Below are positions 5,887 through 62,761 of a stretch of DNA of 64,000 nt, piece after piece (position 1 is the stretch's first letter; the number at the start of each line of letters is the position of its first letter). The DNA lies in assembly GCA_964448085.1 (NCBI GenBank), contig CAYUUX010000003.1:5865-69864 (forward strand). Direction: 5' to 3'. The notes under the pieces are model-generated. The model did no database searches and was not told where the DNA came from. It saw nothing but the letters and a program-made list of their open reading frames with translations. Made by a program: the position numbers and the translations under genes. Source of the DNA: an uncultured Gammaproteobacteria bacterium (GTDB taxonomy: Bacteria; Patescibacteriota; Microgenomatia; UBA10105; UBA927).

Positions 5887-6375
5887 ATGAAACAGTATAT
5901 ATGGTATGTTGGCATTTTTATTGTATGTGTATTGGCAATCCGCATGCCTGTATATGGATTGGACCCAGGGCTGTTGCCTCCAAGGGATGCAATTCAAATT
6001 ACGCTACCAACGGCTACACCAACGCCCACAATAAAATTCATGATTCCGGATAAAAGCATTAGGATTTCTATTGCGCCGTTGTCAACAGCTACTCCAACAC
6101 AAACGACTGCACCGTTAACAACTACAACTGTGGCGGTAAGTCCTACTCCAGATTCATCTCTGGATGCATCAAGCGGAGCAAATGTTGAAAAAACAGAGAG
6201 TACACCATCTCCACAAGGCGAGGAAACAAAAAAAGGGGCTGTAAAAAGTATACTGAACAAGCGGGACATGGGTTTTTTTGGCATTATCGGAGCATTAGCG
6301 TTGATTATCTTGGTTATTCTTTTTTTCCCCAAAAGAAAAAAGGAATCTGACGGCATCACCGAAGAACAAACATAA
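5887..6375 (+). CDS. Hypothetical Thr/Pro-rich secreted protein with a C-terminal TM helix and basic tail
   Basis: N-terminal signal-like hydrophobic segment and a low-complexity TATPTPT region. The C-terminus is GFFGIIGALALIILVILFFPKRKKESDG (hydrophobic segment plus KRKK). Confidence 0.4.
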   Translation: MKQYIWYVGIFIVCVLAIRMPVYGLDPGLLPPRDAIQITLPTATPTPTIKFMIPDKSIRISIAPLSTATPTQTTAPLTTTTVAVSPTPDSSLDASSGANVEKTESTPSPQGEETKKGAVKSILNKRDMGFFGIIGALALIILVILFFPKRKKESDGITEEQT

Positions 6376-7129
6376 AATAGATTCCTGCAAGAAATATACG
6401 GTAGACCCCGAAGGGAACAAAAGAATGATGTCGTATATACTGAAGGAAGAGACGGACCGTAAAAAGCGCGGTGATAAAAGATGTCAAGATTCCCAAGAGA
6501 AGGAAATGTAGTGAAGAGGAATCAAAAGAAATGGGTGATTGAATAAGATCTAATACTGTTGCCGCTAGCATGGTGGGGATTGCAAGAAGAAACGAAAACT
6601 CTACAGATGCGGCTCTGGATAATCCCATAACCATTCCTGCAAACATTGTCGCTGCTGCACGAGATACGCCTGGTATGAGGGAAACAGACTGACCAATCCC
6701 AATACCAACCGCTTGTCGTATCGAAACCGTTTCTAAAGAAGCTCTAGGAAACGTCCTTTTTTTAAACACTGTTTCCATGAGAATAAAGACAGCGCCTCCA
6801 AGAGCGAGTGCGATAACGACTACATAGGGATTGCCTAAAAGATACTGTTTAACAAGTCGGTAGAATAAAAGTCCGGTAATCATGGTGGGAATAAACGCAC
6901 ACAAGAGCGGTACCCAAAGGAACCGTTTGGTTAGGAGAGTTTGAAAATAGATGACGCCCACAGCCATAATTGCCCCAAGCTGGATGATGATCTCAAACGA
7001 TTTTAAGAATTCATTGTTAGGAATGGAAAGCAGAGTTCCAACAAGAATCATATGACCCGTGGAAGATATGGGAAGGAATTCGGTAATACCCTCAACGATA
7101 CCAAGAATGATAGCGTGAACGTTTTGCAT
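6356..7129 (-). CDS. uppP: Undecaprenyl-diphosphatase (UppP/BacA)
   Basis: Hallmark N-terminal motif GIVEGITEFLPISSTGHM and a polytopic membrane profile. Confidence 0.85.
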   Translation of the reverse strand: MQNVHAIILGIVEGITEFLPISSTGHMILVGTLLSIPNNEFLKSFEIIIQLGAIMAVGVIYFQTLLTKRFLWVPLLCAFIPTMITGLLFYRLVKQYLLGNPYVVVIALALGGAVFILMETVFKKRTFPRASLETVSIRQAVGIGIGQSVSLIPGVSRAAATMFAGMVMGLSRAASVEFSFLLAIPTMLAATVLDLIQSPISFDSSSLHFLLLGILTSFITALFTVRLFLQYIRHHSFVPFGVYRIFLAGIYFMFVLR

Positions 7130-7805: not shown

Positions 7806-7822
7806 ACGTTTGTAAACGAAAA

Positions 7823-25004: not shown

Positions 25005-25064
25005 AATTCCCCCTTTACTTTACGTCCAATTACGATACACTTTTAAAATATTAGCGAATTATTT

Positions 25065-26471: not shown

Positions 26472-26592
26472 TAACCGTTCTTCGGTAAATTTTGGTATAA
26501 TTTCTGGTATTACCGTTCGGAGCTGTAGTTCATCGGTTAGAACGCGATCCTTATAAGATCGATGTAGATGGTCCGACTCCATCCAGCTCCAC

Positions 26593-33926: not shown

Positions 33927-35570
33927 ATGGCAAAACAAATTACTTTTTCAGACGAAGCGAGAACAAAATTGGTAAACGGAGTCAACGTTCTTGCAAAAGC
34001 AGTTGTTACCACTTTGGGACCCAAAGGGCGAAATGTGGCCATTGATAGAAAATGGGGAGCTCCAAACGTTATTCACGACGGTGTAACGGTTGCAAAGGAA
34101 ATAGAATTACAGGATCCCTTTGAAAACATGGGGGCACAACTTGTAAAAGAAGCTGCCAGTAAAACAAATGATGTGGCAGGAGATGGAACAACGACAGCCA
34201 CGCTGTTGGCCCAATCGATAGTAAACGCCGGGTTCAAAAACGTAACCGCCGGAGCAAACCCAATGATTTTGAAAGTGGGTATGGAAAAAGGCGTTGAGAC
34301 GGTGGTTACAGAGATTAAAAAGATGGCAAAAACCGTCAAAGAAGCTGACGTAGCGAAAGTGGCAACGATTTCTGCACAGGATGAAAAAATTGGGGGATTG
34401 ATAGCAGAAGCATTGCAAAAAGTAGGGAAAGACGGCGTTGTAACAGTAGAAGAAGGAAAAGGGCTGACAATGGAAATCGAATACAAGGAAGGAATGGAGT
34501 TTGACAAGGGATATGCTTCACCGTATTTTGTGACAAACGCAGATAAAATGGAAGCAGAAATTTCCGATGCGTATCTTTTGATCACTGACAAGAAGATTTC
34601 AGCAATTTCCGATTTACTTCCGTTTTTGGAAAAATTTATCAAAGTATCCAAAAACCTCGTTATTATAGCTGATGAAATTGACGGTGAAGCGCTTGCGACG
34701 CTCGTTGTGAATAAAATGCGGGGCACATTTAATGTGCTGGCTATTAAAGCTCCCGGATTTGGCGACAGACGGAAAGCAATGCTTGAGGATATCGCAATAT
34801 TAACGGGCGGCACTGTTATTTCAGAAGACACAGGTCGGAAGATTGAGAATATTACAGTTGAAGATTGTGGACGCGCTGATAAAGTTTGGGCAGATAAAGA
34901 AAACTGCAGGATTATCGGCGGCAAAGGTCCGGCAACAGCCTTAAAAGCAAGGATTGCACAGATCCGTCGGGAAATTGACGATACAACGAGTGATTTTGAT
35001 CGAGAGAAATTACAAGAACGACTCGCAAAACTTTCTGGAGGAGTAGCTGTTATTAACGTAGGGGCTGCAACGGAGGTAGAGTTGAAAGATAAAAAAGAAC
35101 GGGTGAATGACGCTGTTTCCGCCACCAAAGCGGCTCTTGAGGAAGGTATTGTGGCAGGGGGAGGCGTTGCGCTTCTTCGTGCAAGGACAGCATTGTTAAA
35201 ACTGAAAGAAACGTTATCCGTTGAAGATGAGAAGACCGGTATAGACATTTTATACAAAGCATTAGGTGAACCGGTAAGATGGATTGCTAAAAACGCCGGC
35301 GCAGATGATGGGTGGGTGTTAAAGACCATTGAACAGTCAAAAGTGTCCGATTTTGGCTTCAACGCGATGACACTGGTTTTTGAACCAATGATTCAAGCGG
35401 GAATACTTGATCCAGCAAAGGTGACACGAAGCGCTGTACAAAATGCGGCAAGCATTGGCATGATGGTGTTAACGACAGAGGCATTAATAACTGATATTCC
35501 GGAAAAGAAAGATGCCGGAGCTGGAGCTATGCCGGGTGGCATGGGCGGCATGGGTGGAATGGACTATTAA
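33927..35570 (+). CDS. groL: Chaperonin GroEL
   Basis: [11 protein letters not shown]..., [12 protein letters not shown], and a C-terminal GGMGGMGGM tail. Confidence 0.95.
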
Positions 35571-36540: not shown

Positions 36541-37503
36541 TTGATTGTAGTTTTGTCGTGTGCTAGTATCGTCTGTACCATGAAGAAAAAGATTATTTTT
36601 CTGATCGGATTATTATTATTTGGCGCCATAATCATTGGCGGTATTAAATATTTATTGCAGCGTGCACCCAAGCAAGGAAACCTCAAAGTAGATAGTAATC
36701 CCGTGGCAAGCGTATTTTTGAACAATAAACATATCGGAAGAACACCTATAGATGCTACAGCCATGAAAGTTGATGCTGGTGAATATACGCTGAAAATCGT
36801 ACCGGAATCGGGAACCACGCAATTTGCAAGTTGGCAGGGGAATATTAAGATAGGAGCGAACTTACTGACGTATATCCGAAGCGACTTATCTGAATCAGAA
36901 CTCTCCAGCGCGGTTGATGTCGTGTGGTTGGAAAAAATTTCCGGGAAAAATGCAGAAATAGCTGTGACAACAACACCTGATAGTGCCATGGTATTGCTTG
37001 ATGATGTCACGAAGGGAATGACCCCGATTACTATTGAAAACGTAGTTCCTGGAAATCATACGATTACCGTATCTTCATCAGGATTTTTACAAAGAACATT
37101 AAAGGTACAATTAACGCCCGGATATCGATTGGTGGCTGCGGTAAAGCTTGCCTTATCCTCTTTTACCGAGGATCGTGTCGCTTCAGTAGCAGCAACCAGC
37201 GAGAAACCTGCTACAGCATCCGGAACCCCAAAAACGAGTCCTAAACCAAGTGCAACGGGAACCGCGAGCGTGGTTGACCCGGAAAAACCGTACGCTTTAA
37301 TAAAAGACACTCCGACAGGATATTTGAATGTACGTATGGCTCCTTCTAAGACCGCGACAAAAACAGCAGAGGTGAAACCCGGTGAGAAATATTCGTATGA
37401 AGATTCACAAAAAGATTCCGCTGGTACCGTTTGGTATGAAATTAAAAAAGATGAAGCTGTATTAGGTTGGGTTTCCGGACAGTATATTACCGTCGTTGAG
37501 TGA
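36541..37503 (+). CDS. Membrane-anchored PEGA-domain protein with a C-terminal SH3b-like domain
   Basis: TM helix, PEGA-like VTTTPDSAMVLLDDVTKGMTPITIENVVPGNHTITVS, a T/P-rich linker, and the C-terminal GYLNVRMAP...VWYEIK...GWVSGQY (bacterial SH3-like). Confidence 0.45.
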   Translation: MIVVLSCASIVCTMKKKIIFLIGLLLFGAIIIGGIKYLLQRAPKQGNLKVDSNPVASVFLNNKHIGRTPIDATAMKVDAGEYTLKIVPESGTTQFASWQGNIKIGANLLTYIRSDLSESELSSAVDVVWLEKISGKNAEIAVTTTPDSAMVLLDDVTKGMTPITIENVVPGNHTITVSSSGFLQRTLKVQLTPGYRLVAAVKLALSSFTEDRVASVAATSEKPATASGTPKTSPKPSATGTASVVDPEKPYALIKDTPTGYLNVRMAPSKTATKTAEVKPGEKYSYEDSQKDSAGTVWYEIKKDEAVLGWVSGQYITVVE

Positions 37504-37514: not shown

Positions 37515-38456
37515 TTATCCGCCTATTCCGTAGATGACCAAGAGTACGGAGCTTGCCCATAAGACAACAGTTGTTAATAGCGGGAGATCTGAGGTCAAAA
37601 CTTTTTCTGGAGACTCTCCTTTTCCTTCGTAAATCAACTGCATGTATCGCATAATGCCGTACAATACGAATGGGATCGTAATCATCATCCACTTCCTGTC
37701 AGAAATAGCAGTAAAATTTCCTATAGCCGAGTTGGTAAAAAGTATCCCTTTGTTCGCGGGTTTTTCCAAAAATGTGTAATATACATACGTGATGAATGTT
37801 GAATTCGCAAACATTGCAGTAAATGTATCAAGGAGTTTTTCGGAATAGTGCAACAGGCTATCACGCGTGTCTTTTGGAACAACCCCCTCATATCCTTGAA
37901 TAAGCGTGAGTTCCGCACGACGTTTTCCCGTTGCAAGAAAGAGTGCTAAAGAAAGAACTGCTAACGCAAGCCATATGGAGATGTGATACCCCGTCGCTGC
38001 CTCTCCAGCGTAGACACGTATGAAATACGCAGTCGTTATTGCAAGAATATCAATGATGCTGATATGTTTCAAAATGAGCGAGTAGCTATATTGAAGAAGC
38101 ACAAAGCCAATGGCAAGGAGTAAGAATGTCGTTCCGACGGACGCAGCGATACCAATGCCAATGATAAAAAGAAGCGCTGATGATAAAAGCGCAACGTGCG
38201 TTGATATTTTTCCGCTTGCAACAGGACGGAATTTTTTAAACGGGTGCTTTCTGTCCTTTGGTGCGTCGAGCACATCATTGACGATATATCCTGATGAGGA
38301 AAGGCAGCAAAACGATAGAAAAGCCAAGAAAGTTGAGAAAAAATACTGCGATGTGAATAGGGTGCCCGTAAAGAGTATTGGGGTAAAAACAGCGAGATTT
38401 TTTAACCATTGTCTTGGTCGCGCGGTTTTGAAAATTGCGAAAAGAAGTTGACCCAT
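37515..38456 (-). CDS. UbiA-family prenyltransferase, decaprenyl-phosphate phosphoribosyltransferase-like
   Basis: ARPRQWLKN near the N-terminus and NDVLDAPKDRKHPFKKFRPVASGKIS (the UbiA NDxxDxxxD plus Arg/Pro motif typical of DPPR-synthase-like enzymes). ~9 TM helices. Confidence 0.7.
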   Translation of the reverse strand: MGQLLFAIFKTARPRQWLKNLAVFTPILFTGTLFTSQYFFSTFLAFLSFCCLSSSGYIVNDVLDAPKDRKHPFKKFRPVASGKISTHVALLSSALLFIIGIGIAASVGTTFLLLAIGFVLLQYSYSLILKHISIIDILAITTAYFIRVYAGEAATGYHISIWLALAVLSLALFLATGKRRAELTLIQGYEGVVPKDTRDSLLHYSEKLLDTFTAMFANSTFITYVYYTFLEKPANKGILFTNSAIGNFTAISDRKWMMITIPFVLYGIMRYMQLIYEGKGESPEKVLTSDLPLLTTVVLWASSVLLVIYGIGG

Positions 38457-39505
38457 AGAAAAAATCCTCCGATGCCAACAGCAATTAAGAATAATGTGAA
38501 TATTTTTTGTCTGCTATTAACCGTTAATGCAATTGCACCCAGTATAGCCGAGAGCATCCAGTAAAACAAGGCAATTCTTCGTTTGCCCCAACCAGCTTTC
38601 AGAAGGACATGATGGAGATGTTTTTTGTCTGCCCAGACAGGTGACCCTCCTTTAACTATTCTTCTGATAAGCGTGTACACAGCATCCACGGTTGGAATTC
38701 CGAGCACGAGCAGGGCAGTACCAAGTTTTCCGTAAGACAAAATCGCAAGGATTCCAAGGAGGAAACCGGCGAGTGTTTTACCACTATATCCCGGCATAAT
38801 CTTTTGTGGGTAGAAATTCCACGGAAGAAAACCTGCATATGCACCGGATACGATAAATGACAATATGGTGATTGGGAGCTGTGAAGCGTCGTGTATGCTA
38901 TAGCGAAGAGACAATATGCCGATGATGGCGGCGCTTATGGAAACAAATCCCGGCATTTGACCCTCAACGCCAGCGGACCAACCAACGATATTTGTGGTCC
39001 ACATTAACCATAGAAAGGCGACGAGCGCCGACCATACAAGGAGGGAGTGTGTTCCAAACAGATTGATGGGTATGCGCCAGGAATCAAGGTGTAAAACACC
39101 GCCGCTCAGCGGATTTGTGATGTATGGTATCCCTGCCCCAGCACAAACTGCAATACCTATTGCTAACGTATTCGTGACGATACGAATATACGGACTGATA
39201 TCTTTCACATCATCTAAGAGGCCGACGGTGGTAAAAATCAGGCAAGAAATGAGCAAGCCGATAAATAATTTATTTATCGGCAACAGCAGGAGAGCAACTG
39301 CTGTGATGCCAATAAACAACGCCAGACCTCCCGCTCGTGGAATGACTCCCGTATGTGTGTGCGCAGGATGCAGTCTTTTTTTGGGATCATCTACTAGGCC
39401 AAATTTTTTTGCTATGCGTATCACGAGGGGCGTAATGGCTGTCGTGACTAAAAAGGAAAGAAGAAAAGGGATAAGAATGGCCAATGTCCACATAGAGAGA
39501 TTCAT
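38402..39505 (-). CDS. MraY/WecA-family polyprenyl-phosphate sugar-1-phosphate transferase
   Basis: Polytopic protein with the DD motif (LGLLDDVKDIS). The WecA/MraY-like cytoplasmic loop pattern places it in Glycos_transf_4. The start is set at MNLSMW (4-nt overlap with the upstream gene). Confidence 0.65.
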   Translation of the reverse strand: MNLSMWTLAILIPFLLSFLVTTAITPLVIRIAKKFGLVDDPKKRLHPAHTHTGVIPRAGGLALFIGITAVALLLLPINKLFIGLLISCLIFTTVGLLDDVKDISPYIRIVTNTLAIGIAVCAGAGIPYITNPLSGGVLHLDSWRIPINLFGTHSLLVWSALVAFLWLMWTTNIVGWSAGVEGQMPGFVSISAAIIGILSLRYSIHDASQLPITILSFIVSGAYAGFLPWNFYPQKIMPGYSGKTLAGFLLGILAILSYGKLGTALLVLGIPTVDAVYTLIRRIVKGGSPVWADKKHLHHVLLKAGWGKRRIALFYWMLSAILGAIALTVNSRQKIFTLFLIAVGIGGFFLWVNFFSQFSKPRDQDNG

Positions 39506-39900
39506 GTAATAATCAAAATTATTTTGATCAACGTAATTAAAGACATAACACTTATCACAAAGGAACCAATTGAAAGAATTTGTGAGAACACAAGATACTC
39601 TGCAATAAGTGATGCAGAGAGAAGACTGTTGATTGTGTTCCAAAGAAGAGAAGAGAGTGGTAGTATAAATAACCAATAGGGTGAGGTAAGTCTGTCAAGT
39701 CCCCAAGGCCTTGAATACCATAGTGGGACAACAGGTGGAAATGAATGAAAGGAAACAAGAATCAAGATTATTCCAATAAACGATGAGAATATCGCTCCAT
39801 ACATGGTCCAACGGATGATTGTGTTTTGTCTTAATCGTTGAGACGATTCAGCAACCATAGTAAAAAATTGGCGCATGGATGATAATGTAAAAACGCTCAT
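39502..39900 (-). CDS. Small integral membrane protein (3-4 TM)
   Basis: Hydrophobic 132-aa ORF translationally coupled (ATGA overlap) to the WecA-like gene. Confidence 0.3.
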   Translation of the reverse strand: MSVFTLSSMRQFFTMVAESSQRLRQNTIIRWTMYGAIFSSFIGIILILVSFHSFPPVVPLWYSRPWGLDRLTSPYWLFILPLSSLLWNTINSLLSASLIAEYLVFSQILSIGSFVISVMSLITLIKIILIIT

Positions 39901-39901
39901 A

Positions 39902-41239
39902 TTATTTTGCTTGCGATTGATGATTTATGAGTGGAAGGTCATACGCAATCGAATAGGTTTGATCTTCATGGAGGACAAAAGCGCGTGTTGGATAAGATGG
40001 ATATGTTGTTCTCATAAAGTTCGGTTCTACAATTGCATCTCCTACATACCATGGAAAAGCTCCGTTTGCAGGATTGAACAAAAAGACTCTGGTGGGATTT
40101 TGTGCGTAGTATTTTGCTTCAAATAGTACCAGAGGGCTCTCAACATAGATAACATCGTTTGGACCAATCAGAGAATTAATTTCTTTCATGGGTGTACGGT
40201 AATCGGATTTCATGTGTTGCTGGGGATACCATATGTTCATAAGGATGTTAAACAGAAGAAGAATCCCCACGAGGACAATTTGGATGATTTTTTGTCGTAG
40301 CGACGCGAGTGCAAACCCGATCGAAAACACTTCTGCGATGGTAACTGCTGTGAGATACCGATTAACATAAATTGGTTCAAAGAAGGAAAATCCAATAACA
40401 ATGCTAAGCGGAAGAAAAATAAGCAGAACAAAAAAACCAGACTTTATCCTCTGTGATTTTGGGATAAGCGATATGGCAAAAATCAAAAGAAGAAACAAGG
40501 AAAGATAGTGTGTGTAGCCCCATCCGTACCACGGAGTGCCCTCATAGCCAACATACAGGTTTCCCAAAACAGATTTGATAAGGTGCCAATCGACAGGAAA
40601 GTACCAACTGGTTTGAAATTTAGGAACGCTGGTGGCTATCCATATAAGCCACGGGAGAACGAAAAGTCCAATTGTAAGAAGACTTCGTATAAATTGATCT
40701 TTTATGAGAAAGGGAACCGAGAGAATCTTTTTGCGGTGCACAAGAATGTAATGGATGGCACACACAAAAGGAACAATAGCAACATATTCATGGGTATAGA
40801 ATCCCAAAATAGAGAAAACACTAAACCAAAGCCACCGGGCATTTAGATAACTTGCTACAATTCCCATTGTAAAGAACATGTACCAGCCATACGCGCGTGC
40901 CTCAAATGCATAATATAAAAGCATTGGGTTAAGGAAGAAAAGTATGGGTACTATTCTTTGAATCCACATTTTTTTGAACAACTGTTCTGAAAGACGGACA
41001 ACAATGACAAGGGCGAGCGCAAATCCGAGAAGTGAAAATGAGCGAACGGCAATTTCCCCTTGTCCGAATATTTTCATCCAATAATGAAGGAGTATGTAAT
41101 AGAAGGGTGGATCAAATGATGATTTGGTTATAATAAACGGGATGGATTTTGCCGCAAAAAATACGGAAAAAACTTCATCACGCCATAAAGGTTGTAATAA
41201 ATAGAGGAGTGGAGAGTGTAGCAATATGTTGTTGAACAT
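39902..41239 (-). CDS. GT-C-fold membrane glycosyltransferase (ArnT/PMT/GT39-GT83-like)
   Basis: ~12 TM helices, an N-terminal DE-containing first loop, and the polytopic architecture typical of polyprenyl-phosphate-sugar-dependent GT-C enzymes. Confidence 0.5.
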   Translation of the reverse strand: MFNNILLHSPLLYLLQPLWRDEVFSVFFAAKSIPFIITKSSFDPPFYYILLHYWMKIFGQGEIAVRSFSLLGFALALVIVVRLSEQLFKKMWIQRIVPILFFLNPMLLYYAFEARAYGWYMFFTMGIVASYLNARWLWFSVFSILGFYTHEYVAIVPFVCAIHYILVHRKKILSVPFLIKDQFIRSLLTIGLFVLPWLIWIATSVPKFQTSWYFPVDWHLIKSVLGNLYVGYEGTPWYGWGYTHYLSLFLLLIFAISLIPKSQRIKSGFFVLLIFLPLSIVIGFSFFEPIYVNRYLTAVTIAEVFSIGFALASLRQKIIQIVLVGILLLFNILMNIWYPQQHMKSDYRTPMKEINSLIGPNDVIYVESPLVLFEAKYYAQNPTRVFLFNPANGAFPWYVGDAIVEPNFMRTTYPSYPTRAFVLHEDQTYSIAYDLPLINHQSQAK

Positions 41240-41249
41240 AGCCTCCGTA

Positions 41250-42728
41250 TTATACCTTTTCTGTTACCCTGTATTCCAATCGTTTGCCAAGCATTAATCG
41301 GGTGTGCGCGTCTAATCCTGGAAGAGCGGATAGGAAAAAGGAAATTATCGGAATGGTAAACCATTGCAGATATAAAAAGGGGAGTTTCCATGCGGCGTAT
41401 TCCTTTGGTTTAGGCGGTCGAATGCGCCAATCGATGACAAAAACTATCACAAGAAATATTGTGGAAAGCGTGAGAATGCTCGAAGAAATTTGCGCAAGAT
41501 TGTGTCCAAGAACCGTGCGGCCGAACGCCGGATTCACAAGTGGAGGAATAGTGCTGCCAATCGTTAAGAGAAACCAATTGGCCGGCCAAAAAATATGATG
41601 CTCCAATATAGAAATAACCCGTCGAAGACGGTCCCGCAAGGGGATTTCTGAATGAAGAAAGGCGTTTCTGATTACAAAAGGAATGTCAGACACTCCCCAA
41701 GCCCAACGCTTTGACTGCTCATATTGATTGATTGCGGTGCGGAAAAAACCGTGGCTTTCCGCAGCATCCACTAAAACCGGCAAGAATAGCCCCTCCGTTT
41801 TTACCAATTTTCCTTTTGCAAAATATACCTTGAAAAAAAGATGATAATCTTCAGGAATAACGTCCACATCCCAATACCCAACGTCAATGATGGTTGAGAG
41901 TGAGATGGAATACGTGGAAAAATTAATAAAACGGGAAGTTTGAGAAAGAAGGGATAAATTCCAAATACTGTTTATGGTATTAAATAACCTATTCGGCATC
42001 GGTATACGCCAAATATTTGAATAAAAAAGAATTGCCCCCTGATAAAAGTGATACATGCGAGATGAATCAGTGAGAAACCGATAGGTAAGACAAGAGTAGT
42101 ATTTTGGGTGAAGAAGTGCATCAGCGTCACACGACGTTACTGTTGAAAAGTCTGTTTCAATCGAGTTTTTCAATTGTTGGACAACCTGCTTTGCAGCCCA
42201 TGCCATGTTGGATGATTTTCCTGCGACTTCATTCGGTAAGACCGGATGTTCTGTAACAAGAAAAGCGCCGAATTTCCCTCCGTATTCTTTACGAAGTATG
42301 GTGCTTGTATTTTGCGCATCCGGATCCTTTTTTTCCGTCGCAAGCACGACAATCAACCGTTTTTTGGGAAAATCCTGTAGAACAAGATTGTCCAACGTTC
42401 TGCGAAGTATATGAAGCGGTTCTTTGTATTCGGGTATGATTACGATATGTCGTACGCGATCGAAATCTGGAAGCGATTGCGCTCGCGAAAGCCAATCTAC
42501 TTTAATATGTGCCTGCATTGTTAAATAGGATCGAACTGCGGAATATCCGAGTGTGAAGGATTTATAAAACCAATAAATATCGAAAGTGATAATAATATAT
42601 GCAACCAGAGCGGGATGCCAAAAAGAAAGCCATAAAGGCATTGTGATAAGTACCCACGAGGTAAGGGGAATGGAAATTTCCAAAAACCTTTGTGTTTTAT
42701 TTGGGTAGAGAAGAAATAATCGGCGCAT
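41250..42728 (-). CDS. Processive family-2 glycosyltransferase (cellulose/chitin-synthase-like, QxxRW)
   Basis: Central GT2 domain with D, DxD (CDADALL) and QSKRWAWG (QxxRW), flanked by N- and C-terminal TM helices. Confidence 0.6.
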   Translation of the reverse strand: MRRLFLLYPNKTQRFLEISIPLTSWVLITMPLWLSFWHPALVAYIIITFDIYWFYKSFTLGYSAVRSYLTMQAHIKVDWLSRAQSLPDFDRVRHIVIIPEYKEPLHILRRTLDNLVLQDFPKKRLIVVLATEKKDPDAQNTSTILRKEYGGKFGAFLVTEHPVLPNEVAGKSSNMAWAAKQVVQQLKNSIETDFSTVTSCDADALLHPKYYSCLTYRFLTDSSRMYHFYQGAILFYSNIWRIPMPNRLFNTINSIWNLSLLSQTSRFINFSTYSISLSTIIDVGYWDVDVIPEDYHLFFKVYFAKGKLVKTEGLFLPVLVDAAESHGFFRTAINQYEQSKRWAWGVSDIPFVIRNAFLHSEIPLRDRLRRVISILEHHIFWPANWFLLTIGSTIPPLVNPAFGRTVLGHNLAQISSSILTLSTIFLVIVFVIDWRIRPPKPKEYAAWKLPFLYLQWFTIPIISFFLSALPGLDAHTRLMLGKRLEYRVTEKV

Positions 42729-42764
42729 ACGAACAATCCATAGTATTGTATCACGAGGAAGGGG

Positions 42765-43460
42765 TTAACGCACTTCGGGGAACCCTATCGTGTCAGCCTT
42801 GCGGAATATAAAATAAAGCACAAAAACCTTAAAAACTCGAAGAAAAAGTCCTTTTTCAAAACCTCGTCTTCCCGATGCGCTGACATATTCTTTTTGTGTG
42901 AAGAGTATTTTGCCGGCGGTCATGAGGCGGCGCGCAATTTCAATGTCTTCCGCCATGCGAAAATGGGTCGGAATACCTCCAACTGCAAGGGCGGTTTTTT
43001 TAAAAAAAGCCATGTTTTGGCCAGTTGCCATTGGCATGCGAAACAAGAAAAACAGAACACTATTCAGAATGGGTTGTACTACGTTTATATAAAAACGATA
43101 GAAGGGGGGGCCATCAAAGACGCGAAAACCGCCAAAATACCCAACAACACCAGGTTTTGATAATGCGGTATCAATCCTGTTGAGCCAGTCGTGAGGTAAC
43201 AGCGCGTCTGCATCGGTAAACGCGACGACATCACTTTTTGCAGCCTCGATGCCTTTTTGTCGGGAGAAACCGATGGTTCCTTTGGGTACCGTTAATACAA
43301 CAGCGCCGGCTTGGCGCGCAATACGAACAGTGTCGTCAGTTGATGACGCGTCAACAACGATGATCTCATCCGGTTTTTTGTCGAGCTTGTTAAGCGTCGC
43401 TAACGTCTTCGGAAGAAGCTTTTCTTCATTGAGTGCGGGAATAACAACAGAAATTTTCAT
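42765..43460 (-). CDS. Family-2 glycosyltransferase (Dpm1/GtrB-like polyprenyl-phosphate glycosyltransferase)
   Basis: ISVVIPALNEE...VVDASSTDDT...FTDAD, the classic GT2 N-terminal motifs. 231 aa. Confidence 0.75.
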   Translation of the reverse strand: MKISVVIPALNEEKLLPKTLATLNKLDKKPDEIIVVDASSTDDTVRIARQAGAVVLTVPKGTIGFSRQKGIEAAKSDVVAFTDADALLPHDWLNRIDTALSKPGVVGYFGGFRVFDGPPFYRFYINVVQPILNSVLFFLFRMPMATGQNMAFFKKTALAVGGIPTHFRMAEDIEIARRLMTAGKILFTQKEYVSASGRRGFEKGLFLRVFKVFVLYFIFRKADTIGFPEVR

Positions 43461-43515
43461 AATAAGTTTATGCTATCAGAAAATTGTATAGTTTGTCATT
43501 ATAAACTATACTAGG

Positions 43516-44787
43516 ATGGTAAATATGCCGATAGAACAACAAATACCAACAGTTATGAAGATTCAAGGCGAACGCTTTGGTACTGAGGGTATGTTCACGA
43601 CGATAAAACACGTAATCGGTGTTCAGACGGAACAAGTTGGGAAGGTAGACTATTCTGTAAACATAATTCGTCGAGAACATAATCCCCATTTAGGAAAAGA
43701 ACAAAATCAAGGTGAGAAAAAGCAAATACTGTTAATGTCGGGACTTGATACATCTGGTACGGATTGGCTTCGAATGGCAGAACAATTGATGTTGGATATG
43801 CCAAACGTTGAACAACTAACGCTTCTTGATCACCCTTCACATTCTGGAGTCCGTCATGAACGAACAAATGTCGCACTTAATACAAATTCATTTGAAAACT
43901 CTGCAAAGGTAGTATCAAAAGCAATGGAAACGTTACTTGAACGAGGAGAGATAAAGAAAGGACAGACAGCGATAGGTATATCAACTGGGTGTGCTGTAAT
44001 TGAAGAGGTTGTTGCAATGAATCCGAAAATGATTGACAGACTTGTTTTGTGTGCACCAGCAAGTATGCTTGATAGAACTGAAGAAAAAATGGTAAAAGGT
44101 GGGGCGCATGGAGGAATGGAATATTTAAAACAGTTTTTTAGTGATCTTTTTAGAAAAATTCCTGATAAATATTTAAAACCTAAAGCAGAACGAGCACAAG
44201 CTGCACCAGTTGCTATTGTAATTTCTATTCCAAAAGCATCAGATGCTATACCCGCTGAAGACCTAAAAAACATTCGTTTTAAAAATTTTATTTTTGAAAC
44301 AGCTTTTTCTATAGGAAGAAAATTCCCTCGTTTTTGGCAACACTTTACTGGTATGTGGGGTGACGGGAATCCACACGTTCCTATCATAAAAGCAGATTAT
44401 AAAAAAGATCTTGCGCTTGTTTCAAAAAATACAACAGAAAAAGCAAGAGAAAAAATATCAGGAAAAAAGGTTGTTGTTGTATTAGGTATGGATGATCACG
44501 CTGTTCCACCTGAAGAATTTTTGTTGAAAGAGGATAAGACACATCTTGAAACAATCACTGATCAAAATGAAAAATCGGAAAAAACAATTGACACAATTAT
44601 TTCTAGAGTAAAAGGAAAGTTTAAAAATAACGCAGATACAACTGTTGTGTTAGCTGTCGGGGGGCCTGATACACACGTTGGGTTAAAGACAAATACAGAG
44701 CTGTTCGGACCAGTTATCGCAAATATATTAAAGCCAATTGTGCCAGAAAAATCATGGACAAGAGAGTCAGGATGGCAAAAACCGTAA
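43516..44787 (+). CDS. Alpha/beta-hydrolase-like protein (low-GC gene)
   Basis: GISTG nucleophile elbow and a downstream DDH segment. The local GC is visibly lower than in flanking genes. Confidence 0.4.
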   Translation: MVNMPIEQQIPTVMKIQGERFGTEGMFTTIKHVIGVQTEQVGKVDYSVNIIRREHNPHLGKEQNQGEKKQILLMSGLDTSGTDWLRMAEQLMLDMPNVEQLTLLDHPSHSGVRHERTNVALNTNSFENSAKVVSKAMETLLERGEIKKGQTAIGISTGCAVIEEVVAMNPKMIDRLVLCAPASMLDRTEEKMVKGGAHGGMEYLKQFFSDLFRKIPDKYLKPKAERAQAAPVAIVISIPKASDAIPAEDLKNIRFKNFIFETAFSIGRKFPRFWQHFTGMWGDGNPHVPIIKADYKKDLALVSKNTTEKAREKISGKKVVVVLGMDDHAVPPEEFLLKEDKTHLETITDQNEKSEKTIDTIISRVKGKFKNNADTTVVLAVGGPDTHVGLKTNTELFGPVIANILKPIVPEKSWTRESGWQKP

Positions 44788-52714: not shown

Positions 52715-53560
52715 CTATGGATTTGGGTCTATCAGGGGATAGTAAAGATTCTGACCACCAAAGCCTTCTTTGAATTTGGTAAAACCTTTCCACGCGGTAT
52801 ATTGTCGTGGTCTTCGTTCGTCCCAAACACCGACAAAATCAAATGTCCGGCAACGGTGTCTTCTGGCAAGTTTAATGGATTCCCATACGAGGAGTGTCGG
52901 CGCAAATAATTTTTTCCCTTTTTGCGTAGCCCCCGCTATCCAATAGTAGCAACAGGTATTCCATGTTAGAAGAAGCACCCCTCCAACGACGTTCCCCGTT
53001 TTTTCTTTAGCCAGTAATATGTACGCTTTCTTTTTGGGAGAAAAGATATTCCATAATTTATCTATTCCGTATGTCGTGATGCCTCCAAATAACCCGGCAG
53101 ACGAATTTTTAACCGCGATAAGTTCGTGAATAGCATTTGTTTCCTTTACCGTCAGACCGTTTTTTTGTGCTTTACGAACTGCACGTCTTTTGGCAGACGT
53201 GCATGCGTTAAATAGGTCTAATTCCTGTCTCTTGAGGTTGATGCGGATCGTTTTCGTTGGAAGAAAAGGGGAGCGCATAATTCTAAAAGATTGTGCAAGA
53301 GTGTGTATCCACGCATTGAACGCCGCTTCATCTTCAGTTGCTTTTGGCTCGATACTGACTTGTCGAACGTGGAGGGAATGAAGATGTGCAACTAAATCTG
53401 GAATGTCCGGTAATTTTTCCGGGCGTTGAATTTTCGCCAGCACGCCAAGGAAGGGGATCCTTTTTGAAAATACCGTTATCCCTTGGACTGTTGATACTCC
53501 CCACCGAAGGGAAGTTATGTACTGCTGATATAGTGGGGATTGTTGCAGTTCCATAGTCAT
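52715..53560 (-). CDS. FemAB-family peptidyl/aminoacyl transferase (peptidoglycan interpeptide bridge formation)
   Basis: C-terminal AWKGFTKFKEGFGG (the FemAB FKxgFg motif) and GNAT-like dimensions. Confidence 0.55.
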   Translation of the reverse strand: MTMELQQSPLYQQYITSLRWGVSTVQGITVFSKRIPFLGVLAKIQRPEKLPDIPDLVAHLHSLHVRQVSIEPKATEDEAAFNAWIHTLAQSFRIMRSPFLPTKTIRINLKRQELDLFNACTSAKRRAVRKAQKNGLTVKETNAIHELIAVKNSSAGLFGGITTYGIDKLWNIFSPKKKAYILLAKEKTGNVVGGVLLLTWNTCCYYWIAGATQKGKKLFAPTLLVWESIKLARRHRCRTFDFVGVWDERRPRQYTAWKGFTKFKEGFGGQNLYYPLIDPNP

Positions 53561-53586
53561 TCTATTCGACTCGTTGAAGCATCGTG

Positions 53587-54597
53587 TTATTTGCTAAGTT
53601 TTAGTATCATCCAGCGAACGGTGTCAATTGCGCAGTAGATGGTATATAAGGAAGGTTTCAAAACGAGGTCATAAGAACCGACAAATTCCACGAGCTCTGG
53701 AGCATAGCCGACTTTAAAACGATGAAAACCGTACCAAGGATCCTTGGGATCTGGATTTGGTCCCATTGCACCCCATAAGTCAAATTTTTGTACGTTATGG
53801 TTTTTTCCCCATTTCATCAATTCCCACAACAATACGTTTGGCGCCATCGTTTCCTTGTGAAGGCGTGAAGATGCTCCGTAGGGATAATACATTATCCCGT
53901 CATAAACAAAAATAATCCACGCAGCGAGAACTTCGTGATCGTATGATGCCGTCCAAAGATGTGCGATGCCTGCGTCACGCATGATACGCCACATGGTTCT
54001 ATGGTACGTGCTGTTGTGGGCATAAAACTTTTGCCGTGCAGTCGTTTCTTCTTCTAACCGTAAATACTGTGAAAAAGCTGCATCGCTATTGTCTTCCGTA
54101 ACTTGAACTCCGTGTTTTTGTGCAACCCTGATGTTATACCGAGTTTTTGAATGCATGGCTCGAAGCAATTGTTCCTCTGTTTTAGTGAGATCAATAACGA
54201 AGGTATATCTTGTAAAGAGTGGATGATGTGATGGTTTGAGATGGATATCGTGAGGGATGTGCCTTTTTTTATCAACCAGGATATTGGGTTCAATTTGGAT
54301 GAAAATTGCTTGTTGGTTGTGACCGACGTTTCGTAATTCTTCAAGCGTTTTTTTTGTGAGAACGTTTCCTTTTGGGAAATACCCAATTGTATATGGTGTA
54401 TGCGGTATTCGATGAAATGATACATACCCGTTTGATGTCTTTTCAATCGTGACTCCCATGGATTGTCTAAAATTTGCCCAGGCCTCTGTTTGAATAGGGT
54501 GTATGGGGGCGCTCGGTGTGTTTTTTTTGGATGTCATAGGCATATTATCGCGTTTTTCTCCATGTGTTACAATAGAAGTGGTATGAAAAGACGTCAA
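53587..54597 (-). CDS. FemAB-family transferase (second paralog)
   Basis: YGFHRFKVGYAPE C-terminal motif. ~330 aa, like FemX/FemA. Confidence 0.55.
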   Translation of the reverse strand: MTSFHTTSIVTHGEKRDNMPMTSKKNTPSAPIHPIQTEAWANFRQSMGVTIEKTSNGYVSFHRIPHTPYTIGYFPKGNVLTKKTLEELRNVGHNQQAIFIQIEPNILVDKKRHIPHDIHLKPSHHPLFTRYTFVIDLTKTEEQLLRAMHSKTRYNIRVAQKHGVQVTEDNSDAAFSQYLRLEEETTARQKFYAHNSTYHRTMWRIMRDAGIAHLWTASYDHEVLAAWIIFVYDGIMYYPYGASSRLHKETMAPNVLLWELMKWGKNHNVQKFDLWGAMGPNPDPKDPWYGFHRFKVGYAPELVEFVGSYDLVLKPSLYTIYCAIDTVRWMILKLSK

Positions 54598-56679: not shown

Positions 56680-57327
56680 ATGCCGAAGCGCTTTTTGATA
56701 GGAAACTGGAAGAGTAACATGACTCTTTCTGAGATGAATGAATGGTTTGAGGTGTTTATACCAACACCTGGTATTACCACAGTGCTATGTCTTCCGTTTA
56801 CATTGTTGTCATCAGCAAAAGAGCTTATACAAAAGAAAAACCTTCCAATTGCAATTGGGGCGCAGGATGTATCACCTTTTGGAAAAGGTCCATATACAGG
56901 AGAAGTAACTGCGGACATGATAAAAGAATTCGCTTCGTACGTATTAGTGGGGCATTCAGAAAGAAGACAATATTTTCAGGAGTCCCTTGAGGAACTTTCC
57001 TATGAAACATTGCAGGCAAAAACGGCAGGGTTAACAGTAATCTATTGTGTTGCCGATGAAGAGGAACACATACCAAAGGAAGCCGATATGGTTGCTTTTG
57101 AACCAATCGGATCCATAGGCACGGGGAATCCGGAAAAACCAGAAATTATACAGGCAAAATGCGAAATATTCAGGAAAACTTCAGGAAAAACGATATTATA
57201 TGGAGGTAGTATTACAGAGGAGATCGTTCGGGATATTCTTAAAACAGAAGCGGTAGATGGATTGCTTGTGGGTCAGGCAAGTTTGGATCCAGTGCAATTT
57301 ACTTTAATTGGTAAACAACTTTCATGA
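56680..57327 (+). CDS. tpiA: Triosephosphate isomerase
   Basis: FLIGNWKSN, VGHSERR and GGS...GLLVGQASL motifs. Confidence 0.85.
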   Translation: MPKRFLIGNWKSNMTLSEMNEWFEVFIPTPGITTVLCLPFTLLSSAKELIQKKNLPIAIGAQDVSPFGKGPYTGEVTADMIKEFASYVLVGHSERRQYFQESLEELSYETLQAKTAGLTVIYCVADEEEHIPKEADMVAFEPIGSIGTGNPEKPEIIQAKCEIFRKTSGKTILYGGSITEEIVRDILKTEAVDGLLVGQASLDPVQFTLIGKQLS

Positions 57328-58349
57328 GACACGTACGACGTTTGTTTTCACCACTAGCAGTCGGTATAGCGATAGCATGTATAGGTATTTTATGCGTGAG
57401 TATTCTTTATGTCGTTCGATTAAGCAAAGAATTTACCAAGGAAACGGGATTGAATAGGTCAATACTTATTAAACTATTAATAGATGGGGGATCCAACTTA
57501 AAATCAACTGACAATAAGACCAATATTGCGCTTCTTGGTATGGCGGGTGGTAGTCACGATGGACCAGACCTCACAGATACGATTGTAGTCGTATCATTTG
57601 ATATCAAGAAACAGACGCTTGCAATGATTTCTGTGCCTCGAGATATTTGGTCAGATTCACTCAAAGATAAGATAAACAGCGCATATCATTATGGTGAGGC
57701 AAAAAAAGAAGGTGGTGGTATCATTCTTTCCAGGGCAGTATTGGAGGATGTGGTTGGTTTCCCAATTCATTATGTGATGACGCTAGATTTTTCTCAATTT
57801 GAATCGGTTATCGATGCGTTAGGCGGCATAGATGTTAATGTAACAAAAGGATTTGTGGATAAAGAATTTCCAATTGCGGGTAAAGAAAACGATGAATGTG
57901 GAGGAGATCCGTTGTATGCATGCAGATATGAAACTGTAGCATTCACCCAGGGGAGCCAGCACATGGACGGTTCAACTGCATTAAAATATGTCAGAAGCAG
58001 AAATGCTGAAGGAGATGAGGGGACGGATTTTGCTCGAGGGAAAAGGCAGCAGGATATTATCATTGCGCTTAAAGACGCAATCATTGATGCGAAGATCTGG
58101 TTTCATCCTGCTCTGGCAAAAAAGCTGCTGGATATTATGGATAAAGCAACGGATACTGACATGACGCTTGGTGAACAGTTGACGATAGGGAAGTACGCAA
58201 TAAAAGTTAACTCTACCTCAATTCAAAAAATTTCCATAGAACCATTGCTTATAGTGCCACCCTCATGGGTGTATGGAAGATATGTGTTGGTTCCAGAAAA
58301 AGATTTTGCTTCTATTCACGCATTTATACAACAGGAAATGAACAAGTAA
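57324..58349 (+). CDS. LytR-CpsA-Psr (LCP) family cell-wall polymer phosphotransferase
   Basis: N-terminal TM, then LGMAGGSHDGPDLTDTIVVVS...ISVPRDIW. Translationally coupled to tpiA. Confidence 0.8.
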   Translation: MRHVRRLFSPLAVGIAIACIGILCVSILYVVRLSKEFTKETGLNRSILIKLLIDGGSNLKSTDNKTNIALLGMAGGSHDGPDLTDTIVVVSFDIKKQTLAMISVPRDIWSDSLKDKINSAYHYGEAKKEGGGIILSRAVLEDVVGFPIHYVMTLDFSQFESVIDALGGIDVNVTKGFVDKEFPIAGKENDECGGDPLYACRYETVAFTQGSQHMDGSTALKYVRSRNAEGDEGTDFARGKRQQDIIIALKDAIIDAKIWFHPALAKKLLDIMDKATDTDMTLGEQLTIGKYAIKVNSTSIQKISIEPLLIVPPSWVYGRYVLVPEKDFASIHAFIQQEMNK

Positions 58350-60310: not shown

Positions 60311-60367
60311 TACAATACGTCCTATATCCAGCGTATCGCAATGGATGCAATATAGTCAAGGAAGAAC

Positions 60368-61378
60368 TTAAAGAAGAAGACCTAAGAGAAGGAGAACGAC
60401 ACTTCCTGCAACAGTTAATACGCCGGTTATGTTTAACCCTCCAGAGACAGGCATATCCTGTCCTGATGTATCCTCTGTATCTGATTGATCATCTGCAACG
60501 ACAGGACACGAACAGTCTGACTCAGCTGGACACTCAGCATTTCGACATCGGTTTACACCATTGACTGAAGAACAACTCAAACCGGATGTACAATCATCAT
60601 CGGTTTCGCAAGACGCATCACATTGAGCTGGGTCATTATTCGCTGCTCCTTGCGTTGGAGTTGCTGTAGGTTCACCCGTTGGTTCATCTGTTGGTGTTGC
60701 TGTGGGTTCACCCGTTGGTTCATCTGTTGGTGTTGCTGTGGGTTCACCCGTTGGGGTTTTTGTGGGTGTTTTTGTTGGGGTCTTTGTAGGATCTGTTTTT
60801 TTAGAATCTTCGCAAGCTTTTGCTCCGCAGCTAGCTTTAAAGCAGTAGTGTCCACAGCTATACGAATATATTCCGCAATCTTTTGGTGCTGTTACACATG
60901 CGTCACAATTTAACGTTGATACGGGCGTTTTATAATCACACCCATATATAGTATCGTCCTTTCCTCCAACAGGCTCTGGTTTTTCTGTTGGTGTTGCCGT
61001 TGGCACATTGGCATCAACCCAATTGCAACAAGATGCACCAGTTATAGTTCCTTTTTTTGACAAGCAAATTGTTTTGTCTGTAATACTCGGTCCGCATTGA
61101 CCAGTGCATCCATTTACGGTTTGATAATCGCCTGTGCCATTAAAATGGCAAGGATACTCTCCAGCAGCTTTACTTCGCTGCTCTGTTAATTGGCGTTGTT
61201 GAGAGATATAGAAAACAGCAACCGGAAGGGTAATGATTAAAAATACAACAATAAATAGAATTACCCATTTCCCGGCGCCTGATTTTTTCTTTATCGGTTG
61301 ACTAGAAGAGCTGCTTCCTTGTGTGGGAGCTGCGGCATCTGTTGGGGGAATGATGAATGTATCTGGGGTTGCAGCCAT
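60368..61378 (-). CDS. Double-anchored Cys-rich Thr/Pro-repeat surface protein (paralog 2)
   Basis: Same architecture as 58406..60310. Module CDASCETDDDCTSGLSC...RCRNAECPAESDCSCP. Repeat GEPTATPTDEPT x3. C-terminus is MPVSG plus GLNITGVLTVAGSVVLLLLGLLL. Confidence 0.5.
   Translation of the reverse strand: MAATPDTFIIPPTDAAAPTQGSSSSSQPIKKKSGAGKWVILFIVVFLIITLPVAVFYISQQRQLTEQRSKAAGEYPCHFNGTGDYQTVNGCTGQCGPSITDKTICLSKKGTITGASCCNWVDANVPTATPTEKPEPVGGKDDTIYGCDYKTPVSTLNCDACVTAPKDCGIYSYSCGHYCFKASCGAKACEDSKKTDPTKTPTKTPTKTPTGEPTATPTDEPTGEPTATPTDEPTGEPTATPTQGAANNDPAQCDASCETDDDCTSGLSCSSVNGVNRCRNAECPAESDCSCPVVADDQSDTEDTSGQDMPVSGGLNITGVLTVAGSVVLLLLGLLL
60669..60753. repeat. Perfect 36-bp tandem repeat, ~2.4 copies, in a coding region
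   Basis: ggttcacccgttggttcatctgttggtgttgctgtg repeated, followed by 12-bp PTKT-coding repeats to ~60790. Confidence 0.8.
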
Positions 61379-61424
61379 AATAGTGTTGTGTCTATTTAGT
61401 GTATCATGAAATGCGATTGGAATA

Positions 61425-62753: not shown

Positions 62754-62761
62754 ACAAAACC

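Follow-up and report, generated by a model that had tools for sequence, protein, structure and literature searches.

The question raised by positions 37515-43460 of the 64-kb stretch of bacterial DNA analysed here (the window; GC content ~42%) is what could be made by a compact cluster of genes for membrane and glycan enzymes, among them a UbiA-family protein, a WecA-like protein, a GT-C-fold protein and a synthase-like GT2 protein. The answer that we favour, with confidence only a little above even, is that these genes form an operon for an envelope glycan of a Candidatus Gottesmanbacteria cell, a glycan that would be lipid-primed, made by the synthase and given pentofuranose outside the membrane from polyprenyl-phospho-ribose. 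An earlier note on this DNA had described a polyprenyl-phosphate glycan assembly cluster. That interpretation is partly supported; it appears largely right, with corrections regarding a 231-amino acid (aa) GT2 protein, the active site of the WecA-like protein and the sugar.

The region is occupied by six minus-strand open reading frames (ORFs), and independent gene calls on public contigs of identical sequence give the same six genes. In coding-strand order, these encode a 231-aa soluble GT2 protein, a 492-aa membrane GT2 protein, a 445-aa protein with multiple transmembrane (TM) helices, a 132-aa protein with three TM helices, a 367-aa Glycos_transf_4 (WecA-like) protein and a 313-aa UbiA protein. 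Assignment to a family or fold is significant for five of the six (UbiA, Glycos_transf_4, both GT2 proteins and GT-C); the reading frame left without description in the earlier note encodes the 132-aa protein. The mechanically called ORF of the WecA-like gene (38402-39676) is too long, and its start was corrected such that the ATG overlaps the stop codon of the 132-aa gene as ATGA. As first described, the six genes are co-directional and partly overlapping, and their order and spacing recur in ~80 species-level genomes.

The UbiA protein is resolved by Pfam to the superfamily level only (PF01040 UbiA, E-value: 2.3e-22) and has no extra domain such as a fused phosphatase. Against the NCBIfam models of decaprenylphosphoryl-5-phosphoribose (DPPR) synthases, it scores 201.4 bits (NF008978, cutoff 207) and 198.8 bits (NF008977, cutoff 234), narrowly below the equivalog cutoffs, while every other NCBIfam prenyltransferase model gives 54 bits or less. 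Its best match among PDB sequences is Mycobacterium tuberculosis Rv3806c (8j8j; E-value: 1.2e-29), followed by other UbiA enzymes at E-values of ~2e-4, and close homologs, including many orthologs, are already named DPPR synthase at NCBI. In Rv3806c, phosphoribosyl pyrophosphate (PRPP), Mg and decaprenyl phosphate are bound by R22, K28, Y70, N73, D77, K87, R90, Q135, Y138, K143 and Y157, and the phosphoribose-binding sites are stated to be non-conserved across the wider UbiA superfamily (PMC10994848). In a HMMER alignment, all 11 of these residues are identical in the window protein (R13, K19, Y57, N60, D64, K74, R77, Q122, Y125, K130 and Y144), and none of them varies among 15 homologs. The window protein also has the two loops, NDxxDxxxD and R..E, that matter in the polyprenyl-phosphate 5-phosphoribosyltransferase (PPPRS) of Citrobacter (PMC11127046), as N60, D61, D64 and D68 and as R179/R180 and E182. 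Because of the Rv3806c match, the NCBIfam scores, the substrate residues and the PPPRS loops, this protein is treated as a predicted polyprenyl-phosphate phosphoribosyltransferase of the Rv3806c type, with putative PRPP-dependent activity. The DPPR-synthase-like label of the earlier note is borne out: the protein groups with DPPR synthases and not with the menaquinone or heme-O prenyltransferases named beforehand as the counter-case.

The 445-aa protein has no Pfam match and a single weak NCBIfam match (a mannosyltransferase model). A profile of its alignment likewise had no match among PDB sequences, and a fold search was needed. The AlphaFold2 model of this protein, based on an alignment of 46 homologs, has a mean predicted local distance difference test score (pLDDT) of 88.9 and a predicted template modelling score of 0.90. 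Its top Foldseek match in the PDB is ArnT (5ezm/5f15; E-value: 3e-5, TM-score 0.6), followed by PglB, ALG9, ALG12, STT3 and AftB, these GT-C folds being matched at a probability of 1.0. Transporters and G protein-coupled receptors appear only at E-values of ~0.3 or weaker (probability of 0.14 or less), and the candidate of an unrelated transporter, raised as the counter-case to the GT-C assignment, was rejected. The Pfam domain PMT_2 is matched weakly by 15 of the 46 homologs (best E-value: 1.9e-6), though not by the window protein itself, and an ortholog from a divergent clade scores 29.8 (cutoff 26.1). The residues W19-R20-D21-E22, directly after the first TM helix, are invariant in the 46 sequences, as are P45, Y47 and R294-Y295. 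In GT-C enzymes, the position just behind the first TM helix is that of the catalytic acid. D21-E22 and R294-Y295 also recall, by position only, residues D31/E34 and R349/Y350 that are functionally required in the GT136 prototype ORF12 (PMC11127046). From its fold and the adjacent PPPRS gene, this enzyme would be expected to use a polyprenyl-phosphate-sugar donor on the outer face of the membrane.

The 492-aa GT2 protein (Pfam Glyco_trans_2_3, 31 bits) has the invariant motifs D135, D201-A-D203, P292-E293-D294 and Q338-S-K-R-W342, and is modelled with two N-terminal and ~4 C-terminal TM helices. Its top Foldseek matches are PcManGT (described as a "minimal cellulose-synthase-like" enzyme), the Chlorella virus and Xenopus hyaluronan synthases and BcsA, with E-values of 2e-8 to 1e-6 and TM-scores of only ~0.4; comparison with PDB sequences, by single sequence and by profile, gave marginal matches, none of them significant. 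The earlier note had called this protein a processive QxxRW GT2. The motif (as QSKRW) and the match to hyaluronan and cellulose synthase folds are both found, and from these we infer processive polymerisation. An exhaustive HMMER search places the protein in an uncharacterised family of 365 clusters (E-value <1e-30). Among 171 proteins (150 representatives of the GT2 family plus members of the cluster), no fusion of a distant GT2 homolog to the small protein, GT-C, UbiA or the WecA-like protein was found. Two distant family members, one of them from Chloroflexota, have no UbiA, GT-C or WecA-like neighbours. On the Chloroflexota contig DATCNQ010000800.1 (L089, 2209-5047), a 43% identical GT2 homolog lies directly after a GH18 (chitinase-family) gene with no operon genes nearby; this neighbour is a weak hint that the family may make a polymer containing N-acetylglucosamine (GlcNAc).

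The 367-aa protein belongs to the PNPT superfamily (PF00953 Glycos_transf_4, 78 bits, cutoff 27; E-value: 9.9e-22) and is 31% identical to Escherichia coli WecA (E-value: 9e-20), although its score of 90.2 bits against the curated model TIGR02380 is below the cutoff of 326. E. coli MraY had no match in the window and matched one of ~89 related sequences (E-value: 2e-4); the candidate that this protein is the MraY of the cell was rejected, the sequence matching WecA instead. Alignments with E. coli WecA and MraY, and with MraY structures, show that the DD motif is kept (D98 and D99) and that H296-L-H298-H299 aligns with the HIHH of WecA. At the Asp of the VFMGD motif, however, the protein has Tyr240, equivalent to WecA D217, E. 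coli MraY D267 and Aquifex MraY D265. The tyrosine lies in the context K-I-M-P-G-Y-G/S-G-K, with no acidic residue from W229 to K243, and is shared by every one of the 33 Gottesmanbacteria sequences in the alignment as well as by the divergent clade (~46-48% identical). The NxxNxxDGxDG motif reads N-I-V-G-W-S-A-G-V-E-G in the window, the second Asn being replaced by Gly and the first Asp by Ala (Ala178); the second Asp of DGxDG is Glu in the window protein and Asp in most homologs. Ala in place of the first DGxDG Asp is likewise a feature of eukaryotic GlcNAc-1-phosphate transferases (the DPAGT1 motif). The Asn-to-Gly and Asp-to-Ala changes correspond to Bacillus subtilis MraY N171 and D174, which are listed as catalytically important, and Aquifex MraY D265 adjoins the bound Mg2+ (PMC5039524). 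A literature search on the VFMGD motif of WecA returned nothing. Its strong conservation shows that the protein is functional. The WecA/MraY-like sugar-1-phosphate transferase of the earlier note thus stands as a WecA-like family member, but with Tyr240 its priming activity is not assured.

The 132-aa protein has three predicted TM helices and, in an extracytoplasmic loop, the motif LPPxVPLWYSxPWG, which is invariant in the alignment of its homologs. Neither Pfam nor NCBIfam gives a significant match for the window protein (DUF2537 at an E-value of 0.099 only), which is not recognisable as a GtrA, SMR or MATE protein; DUF1648 is matched weakly by 8 of 33 homologs (best E-value: 4.7e-4). Its gene always lies between the GT-C and WecA-like genes, both in the species-level and in the metagenome loci.

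The 231-aa GT2 protein (Pfam Glycos_transf_2, 86.7 bits) had been proposed as a Dpm-like, lipid-carrier enzyme, a proposal that is not supported. No TM segment is predicted, its best NCBIfam model is TIGR04283 (98 bits, cutoff 182), the dolichyl-phosphate-hexose transferase and PpgS models give only 27-36 bits, and its best PDB matches (GpgS and PcManGT) are generic. Its gene occurs in ~25 of 73 related loci, in each case immediately upstream of the synthase gene, and the protein is best classified as an accessory, cytoplasmic GT-A enzyme of generic type. Together with a divergently transcribed gene for a 423-aa protein, the 231-aa GT2 gene constitutes a variable insertion (42765-44787) between the TatD gene and the core operon. 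The 423-aa protein has a weak alpha/beta-hydrolase match, and its gene is found only in the three closest relatives.

A conservation scan limited to a single genome for each species found 80 loci, which all belong to the same lineage. The order membrane GT2, GT-C, small protein, WecA-like protein and UbiA is present in every locus with enough sequence, and wherever the flanks are long enough the PPPRS and GT-C genes are found together. In a metagenome scan that started from the small protein, this protein was accompanied by the WecA-like protein in 44 of 44 cases, by UbiA in 34 of 34 and by the GT2 protein in 42 of 43. Identity to the window protein across the species-level loci is 60-83% for the membrane GT2, 58-78% for UbiA, 54-81% for the WecA-like protein, 35-55% for GT-C and 28-54% for the small protein. 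Spacing is tight: 9-14 nucleotides (nt) typically separate the GT2 and GT-C genes, GT-C overlaps the small-protein gene by 4 nt and ~3 nt separate the latter from the WecA-like gene, these two overlapping by 4 nt in the window. In 76 of 82 loci, the overlap of the WecA-like gene with UbiA is 55 nt long, and in the window it spans 38402-38456. Protein-level conservation is seen both in the C-terminal tail of the WecA-like protein (..QFSKPxDxDNG) and in the N-terminus of UbiA, which are encoded in this overlap. Both reading frames of the overlap are thus constrained by coding, and translational coupling is suggested. A scan for consensus promoters and terminators found sites no more frequently than in shuffled sequence, and this result was not used. 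The arrangement recurs far beyond chance. The five core genes are a conserved operon to which the 231-aa GT2 gene is accessory, and within a lineage of the candidate phyla radiation (CPR) this operon is a core feature across the class, kept in every Gottesmanbacteria genome examined.

In the divergent clade, which came to light in the metagenome scan, the UbiA protein is 41-45% identical to that of the window and the order GT2, GT-C(s), small protein, WecA-like protein and UbiA is kept, with an overlap of 64 nt between the last two genes. Here, a GT-C protein of a different type either replaces the 445-aa type or accompanies its PMT_2-scoring ortholog. The second multi-TM protein was called ArnT-like solely from reading its N-terminal signature (ADEGIY...NKPPLLY); an hhalign comparison with the GT-C profile was not significant. 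A GT-C that is exchanged or added while the rest stays constant is as expected if an unchanging lipid-donor module supplies GT-C transferases that vary. In one locus of this clade (L165, 8208-8597, minus strand), a small cupin-domain gene with weak matches to mannose-6-phosphate isomerase-like proteins lies between the UbiA and PEGA genes.

The lineage itself was assigned by sequence. The window UbiA is identical to a database protein on public contigs, and relatives with 70-79% identity are named Candidatus Gottesmanbacteria or Microgenomates; by this evidence the window is placed in a Candidatus Gottesmanbacteria genome (CPR/Patescibacteria, Microgenomates). Loci L007, L010, L012 and L014-L016, and many others, are from TPA metagenome-assembled genomes titled "uncultured Gammaproteobacteria bacterium", and carry a Gottesmanbacteria-type operon and synteny at 65-77% identity. 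Judged by gene content and identity, these titles appear to be taxonomically wrong.

The pathway that we favour would proceed as follows. At the cytoplasmic face, the UbiA enzyme would transfer 5-phosphoribose from PRPP to polyprenyl phosphate, forming polyprenyl-phosphate-ribose-5-phosphate. This lipid would then be dephosphorylated and flipped. Outside the membrane, the GT-C enzyme would add pentofuranose from polyprenyl-phospho-ribofuranose to an acceptor, most likely the glycan that the neighbouring hyaluronan/cellulose-synthase-like GT2 would synthesise and export. This glycan may start on a polyprenyl-diphosphate-N-acetylhexosamine primer formed by the WecA-like protein, and its final attachment to peptidoglycan could be carried out by a LytR-CpsA-Psr (LCP) enzyme encoded at 57324-58349.

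Several observations weigh against this pathway. In family scans (Pfam/NCBIfam or precomputed Pfam), which took in the long ORFs of the entire 64 kb, there was no 5-phosphatase (PAP2 or HAD-PRP), no flippase of a recognised kind (MATE, GtrA or SMR) and no DprE1/E2-like epimerase pair. The WecA-like protein has no Mg-binding Asp (Tyr240) and is changed at two positions that are important in MraY, which makes priming uncertain. The distant GT2 homologs stand alone, so the synthase has no intrinsic need of the other operon genes, and its AlphaFold2 model has a mean pLDDT of 67, with a good GT-A core but values below 50 in the C-terminal TM region. Finally, the TatD, methionyl-tRNA synthetase (MetRS) and PEGA/SH3 genes are as syntenic as the operon genes. 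Because housekeeping neighbours such as TatD and MetRS are equally conserved in position, adjacency alone does not prove a shared pathway, and the argument for one rests on tight spacing and functional coherence.

One alternative, which we consider unlikely but the most serious, is that two independent modules share one operon: the PPPRS, GT-C and small protein would pentofuranosylate surface proteins, while the GT2 would make an unrelated exopolysaccharide. Candidate targets would be type IV pilins, S-layer proteins or the PEGA protein, comparable to the TfpW-dependent arabinosylation of pilin in Pseudomonas aeruginosa, and pilin pentofuranosylation by a PPPRS and GT-C pair is indeed a precedent (PMC11127046). 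The GT-C is closest to the ArnT/PMT_2 type, a group that includes protein O-glycosyltransferases; a PEGA/SH3 surface-protein gene always adjoins the operon; PilO-like and other surface-protein genes are present in the window; and the GT2 homologs of other phyla function without the remaining operon genes. Against this, the five genes are tightly packed and their order is constant across deep divergence, and adjacency of the PEGA gene is weak evidence given that the unrelated TatD and MetRS genes are also syntenic.

An arabinan-type system, in which DprE1/DprE2-like enzymes encoded elsewhere in the genome would yield polyprenyl-phosphate-arabinofuranose and the GT-C would be an arabinofuranosyltransferase, is improbable. 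PPPRS is the committed step towards decaprenyl-phosphate-arabinose (DPA) in mycobacteria and towards arabinofuranose on the pilin of Pseudomonas (PMC11127046), and AftB is among the GT-C fold matches. In known arabinofuranose systems, however, DprE1/E2 mostly lie within or close to the cluster (PMC11127046), and no pair of a flavin adenine dinucleotide-dependent (FAD) oxidase and a short-chain dehydrogenase/reductase was found in the 64 kb or within ~10 kb of the operon in those related genomes whose gene tables were read. As the window has no DprE1/E2, ribofuranose is the default donor sugar in the pathway that we favour, and ribose is taken as more likely than arabinose.

More doubtful still is the idea that the WecA-like protein is not a primer but has a new role tied to PPPRS, as a partner or scaffold, a handler or flippase of the carrier lipid, or a phosphoribosyl-lipid transferase. 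This would account for a protein that has Tyr for the VFMGD Asp in both clades and changes at two MraY-critical positions, and yet is 54-81% conserved and has numerous invariant residues that are its own; the conserved 55-64 nt overlap with UbiA, in which both frames are maintained at the protein level, and the lack of a recognised flippase or phosphatase in the operon also fit. It is opposed by retention of the DD and WecA-type HxHH motifs, by the Ala that eukaryotic GlcNAc-1-phosphate transferases share at the first DGxDG Asp and by the lack of any precedent for such a role, and the presence of an LCP gene in the window points to some polyprenyl-diphosphate-linked polymer being made. That UbiA is an ordinary aromatic prenyltransferase (quinone or heme O) in a coincidental neighbourhood of membrane enzymes can be put aside almost entirely: the general Pfam assignment and the DPPR scores just below the equivalog cutoffs would allow it, but the Rv3806c match is ~25 orders of magnitude better than that to any other UbiA structure, the phosphoribose residues that vary across the superfamily are all present and invariant, and the gene overlaps the WecA-like gene within a glycan-enzyme operon.

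In a literature search, no paper was found that describes this operon, and nothing relevant on decaprenyl, UbiA or glycosyltransferase topics in CPR, Patescibacteria, Microgenomates or Gottesmanbacteria. The two closest parallels are the three-component pentofuranose systems (PPPRS, flippase and GT-C) and the mycobacterial arabinogalactan/DPA pathway, the latter comprising WecA (Rv1302), GlfT2, Rv3806c, Rv3807c, DprE1/E2, Rv3789, AftA/Emb/AftB and Lcp1. The favoured pathway resembles the mycobacterial one in having a PNPT primer, a polymerising GT2, a PRPP-derived polyprenyl-phospho-pentose donor, an extracytoplasmic GT-C and LCP ligation, and the Rv3806c substrate residues are retained in full by the window UbiA. 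It differs in that no DprE1/E2, PAP2 phosphatase or GtrA/SMR-like Rv3789 is found nearby, that the GT2 appears to be of a membrane-channel synthase type whereas GlfT2 is soluble, that one small GT-C (445 aa, no carbohydrate-binding module) stands in place of several large ones and that the PNPT has Tyr for the Mg-binding Asp. The likeness to actinobacterial arabinan drawn in the earlier note is therefore retained for the logic of the pathway but not for the sugar, as no DprE1/E2-like epimerase is encoded in the 64 kb. With synthase-dependent export (class I hyaluronan synthase and BcsA), the 492-aa protein shares the D, DxD, ED and QxxRW motifs and, in its model, a 2 + 4 arrangement of TM helices, with fold matches at TM-scores of only ~0.4; unlike the characterised synthases, to which its sequence similarity is marginal, it has no cyclic di-GMP/PilZ domain and no BcsB-like partner. 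In Salmonella O:54, the synthase WbbF is primed via WecA, and the window synthase similarly co-occurs with a WecA-like gene.

The D-arabinofuranosylation of P. aeruginosa pilin (TfpW GT-C, PPPRS and DprE1/E2 homologs) shares with the window a PPPRS and GT-C pair outside Actinobacteria and, as predicted here, extracytoplasmic pentofuranosyl transfer; its target is pilin and its locus includes epimerases, whereas none were found with the window operon. Three-component pentofuranose systems are described for Citrobacter youngae O1/O2, in which ORF15 is a PPPRS-PRP protein, ORF14 a MATE flippase and ORF12 a GT136 GT-C (Kelly et al., PNAS 2024, PMC11127046). The window operon is alike in placing a UbiA-type PPPRS with conserved NDxxDxxxD and R..E loops beside a GT-C, and in that this GT-C, like ORF12, is closest in fold to ArnT (PMC11127046). 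Unlike the Citrobacter proteins, the window PPPRS has no fused PRP phosphatase domain, a three-TM protein stands in the place of the MATE flippase and the system is joined to a PNPT and a synthase-type GT2 in a single operon instead of lying in an O-antigen locus. The Citrobacter system is also serotype-variable, whereas the window operon is a class-wide core feature of a host with a monoderm-type envelope.

Beyond the operon, the window includes genes for GroEL, MetRS, two class A penicillin-binding proteins, UppP, FemAB proteins and an LCP protein (Pfam/NCBIfam), and three of its other features are listed with the operon genes in Table 1. The PEGA/SH3 gene is convergent with the operon and lies next to UbiA in essentially all related loci, including those of the divergent clade; its linkage to the operon is weakly supported, given that general synteny is conserved too. 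The LCP protein may be the ligase by which a lipid-linked polymer is joined to peptidoglycan, and two adjacent FemAB-family genes (peptidoglycan cross-bridge formation) are located at 52715-54597 on the minus strand. Together, the FemAB pair and the LCP protein indicate a Gram-positive-type wall with an attached polymer. UppP lies in a minus-strand region (6356-12262) in which, at higher coordinates, the two class A penicillin-binding protein genes stand one after the other (7847-9937 and 9989-12262), and a patatin-like phospholipase is encoded at 5019-5831.

Table 1. Operon genes and other envelope-related features of the window
Feature	Position	Strand	Basis
Predicted polyprenyl-phosphate 5-phosphoribosyltransferase (PPPRS/DPPR-synthase-like UbiA), 313 aa	37515..38456	-	Pfam, NCBIfam, PDB match, residues
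WecA-like PNPT (Glycos_transf_4), non-canonical active site, 367 aa	38402..39505	-	PF00953, identity to WecA
Small membrane protein with three TM helices, family not assigned, 132 aa	39502..39900	-	Conserved loop motif, position
GT-C-fold glycosyltransferase, ArnT/PMT_2-like, 445 aa	39902..41239	-	AlphaFold2 model, Foldseek
Membrane-integrated GT2, cellulose/hyaluronan-synthase-like, 492 aa	41250..42728	-	Pfam Glyco_trans_2_3, motifs, Foldseek
Accessory soluble GT2, variable presence, 231 aa	42765..43460	-	Pfam Glycos_transf_2
PEGA + SH3_3 protein, secreted or anchored	36580..37503	+	Pfam PEGA (E-value: 5.5e-18), SH3_3 (E-value: 5.4e-9)
LytR-CpsA-Psr (LCP) protein	57324..58349	+	Pfam PF03816 (E-value: 3.7e-32)
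Undecaprenyl-diphosphatase (BacA/UppP), polyprenyl phosphate supply	6356..7129	-	Pfam PF02673 (E-value: 1.8e-68)

The remaining genes of the window include a plus-strand pair (22656-26471) encoding a 782-aa DUF8128/DUF87/TraG-like ATPase (type IV secretion or coupling-protein-like) and, after it, a 468-aa protein with weak pre-ATP-grasp and ATP-grasp matches. Probable surface or pilus genes on the minus strand (58406-63603) encode a 634-aa protein with no Pfam match and PT-repeat, fn3/Big_13 and PilO-like proteins. The GroEL gene wholly encloses a 429-aa antisense ORF (34073-35362, minus strand), almost certainly a non-coding shadow ORF. A tRNA-Ile (anticodon TAT; 26519-26592, plus strand) is the sole tRNA found in the 64 kb, and an Rfam scan of the window at the gathering threshold gave no matches.

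CPR bacteria are uncultivated, their genomes are tiny and their envelopes are almost uncharacterised. Because the operon is retained in every genome examined, the glycan would be important for Gottesmanbacteria cells, and the operon predicts that an envelope polymer carries pentofuranose, probably ribofuranose, from a PRPP-derived lipid. Pentofuranosylation by PPPRS and GT-C would thereby reach beyond the variable antigens of pathogens and be among the core traits of a deep-branching lineage. Most noteworthy are the altered active site of the PNPT and the small three-TM protein: a PNPT subfamily without the Mg-binding Asp of VFMGD poses a mechanistic question for a superfamily targeted by tunicamycin and MraY inhibitors, and a GT-C as small as 445 aa, with its PPPRS, may be of use in structural and glyco-engineering work. 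A bolder and rather unlikely version would have a minimal wall-glycopolymer pathway as the core trait of this CPR class, in which a repurposed WecA-like protein, having lost the Mg-binding Asp, acts in concert with the translationally coupled phosphoribosyl-lipid synthase and might handle, flip or modify polyprenyl-phosphate-ribose-5-phosphate, and the DUF1648-like small protein is a new accessory or flippase subunit of the GT-C. If that were true, ultra-small episymbiotic bacteria would have a wall polymer containing ribofuranose or phosphoribose.

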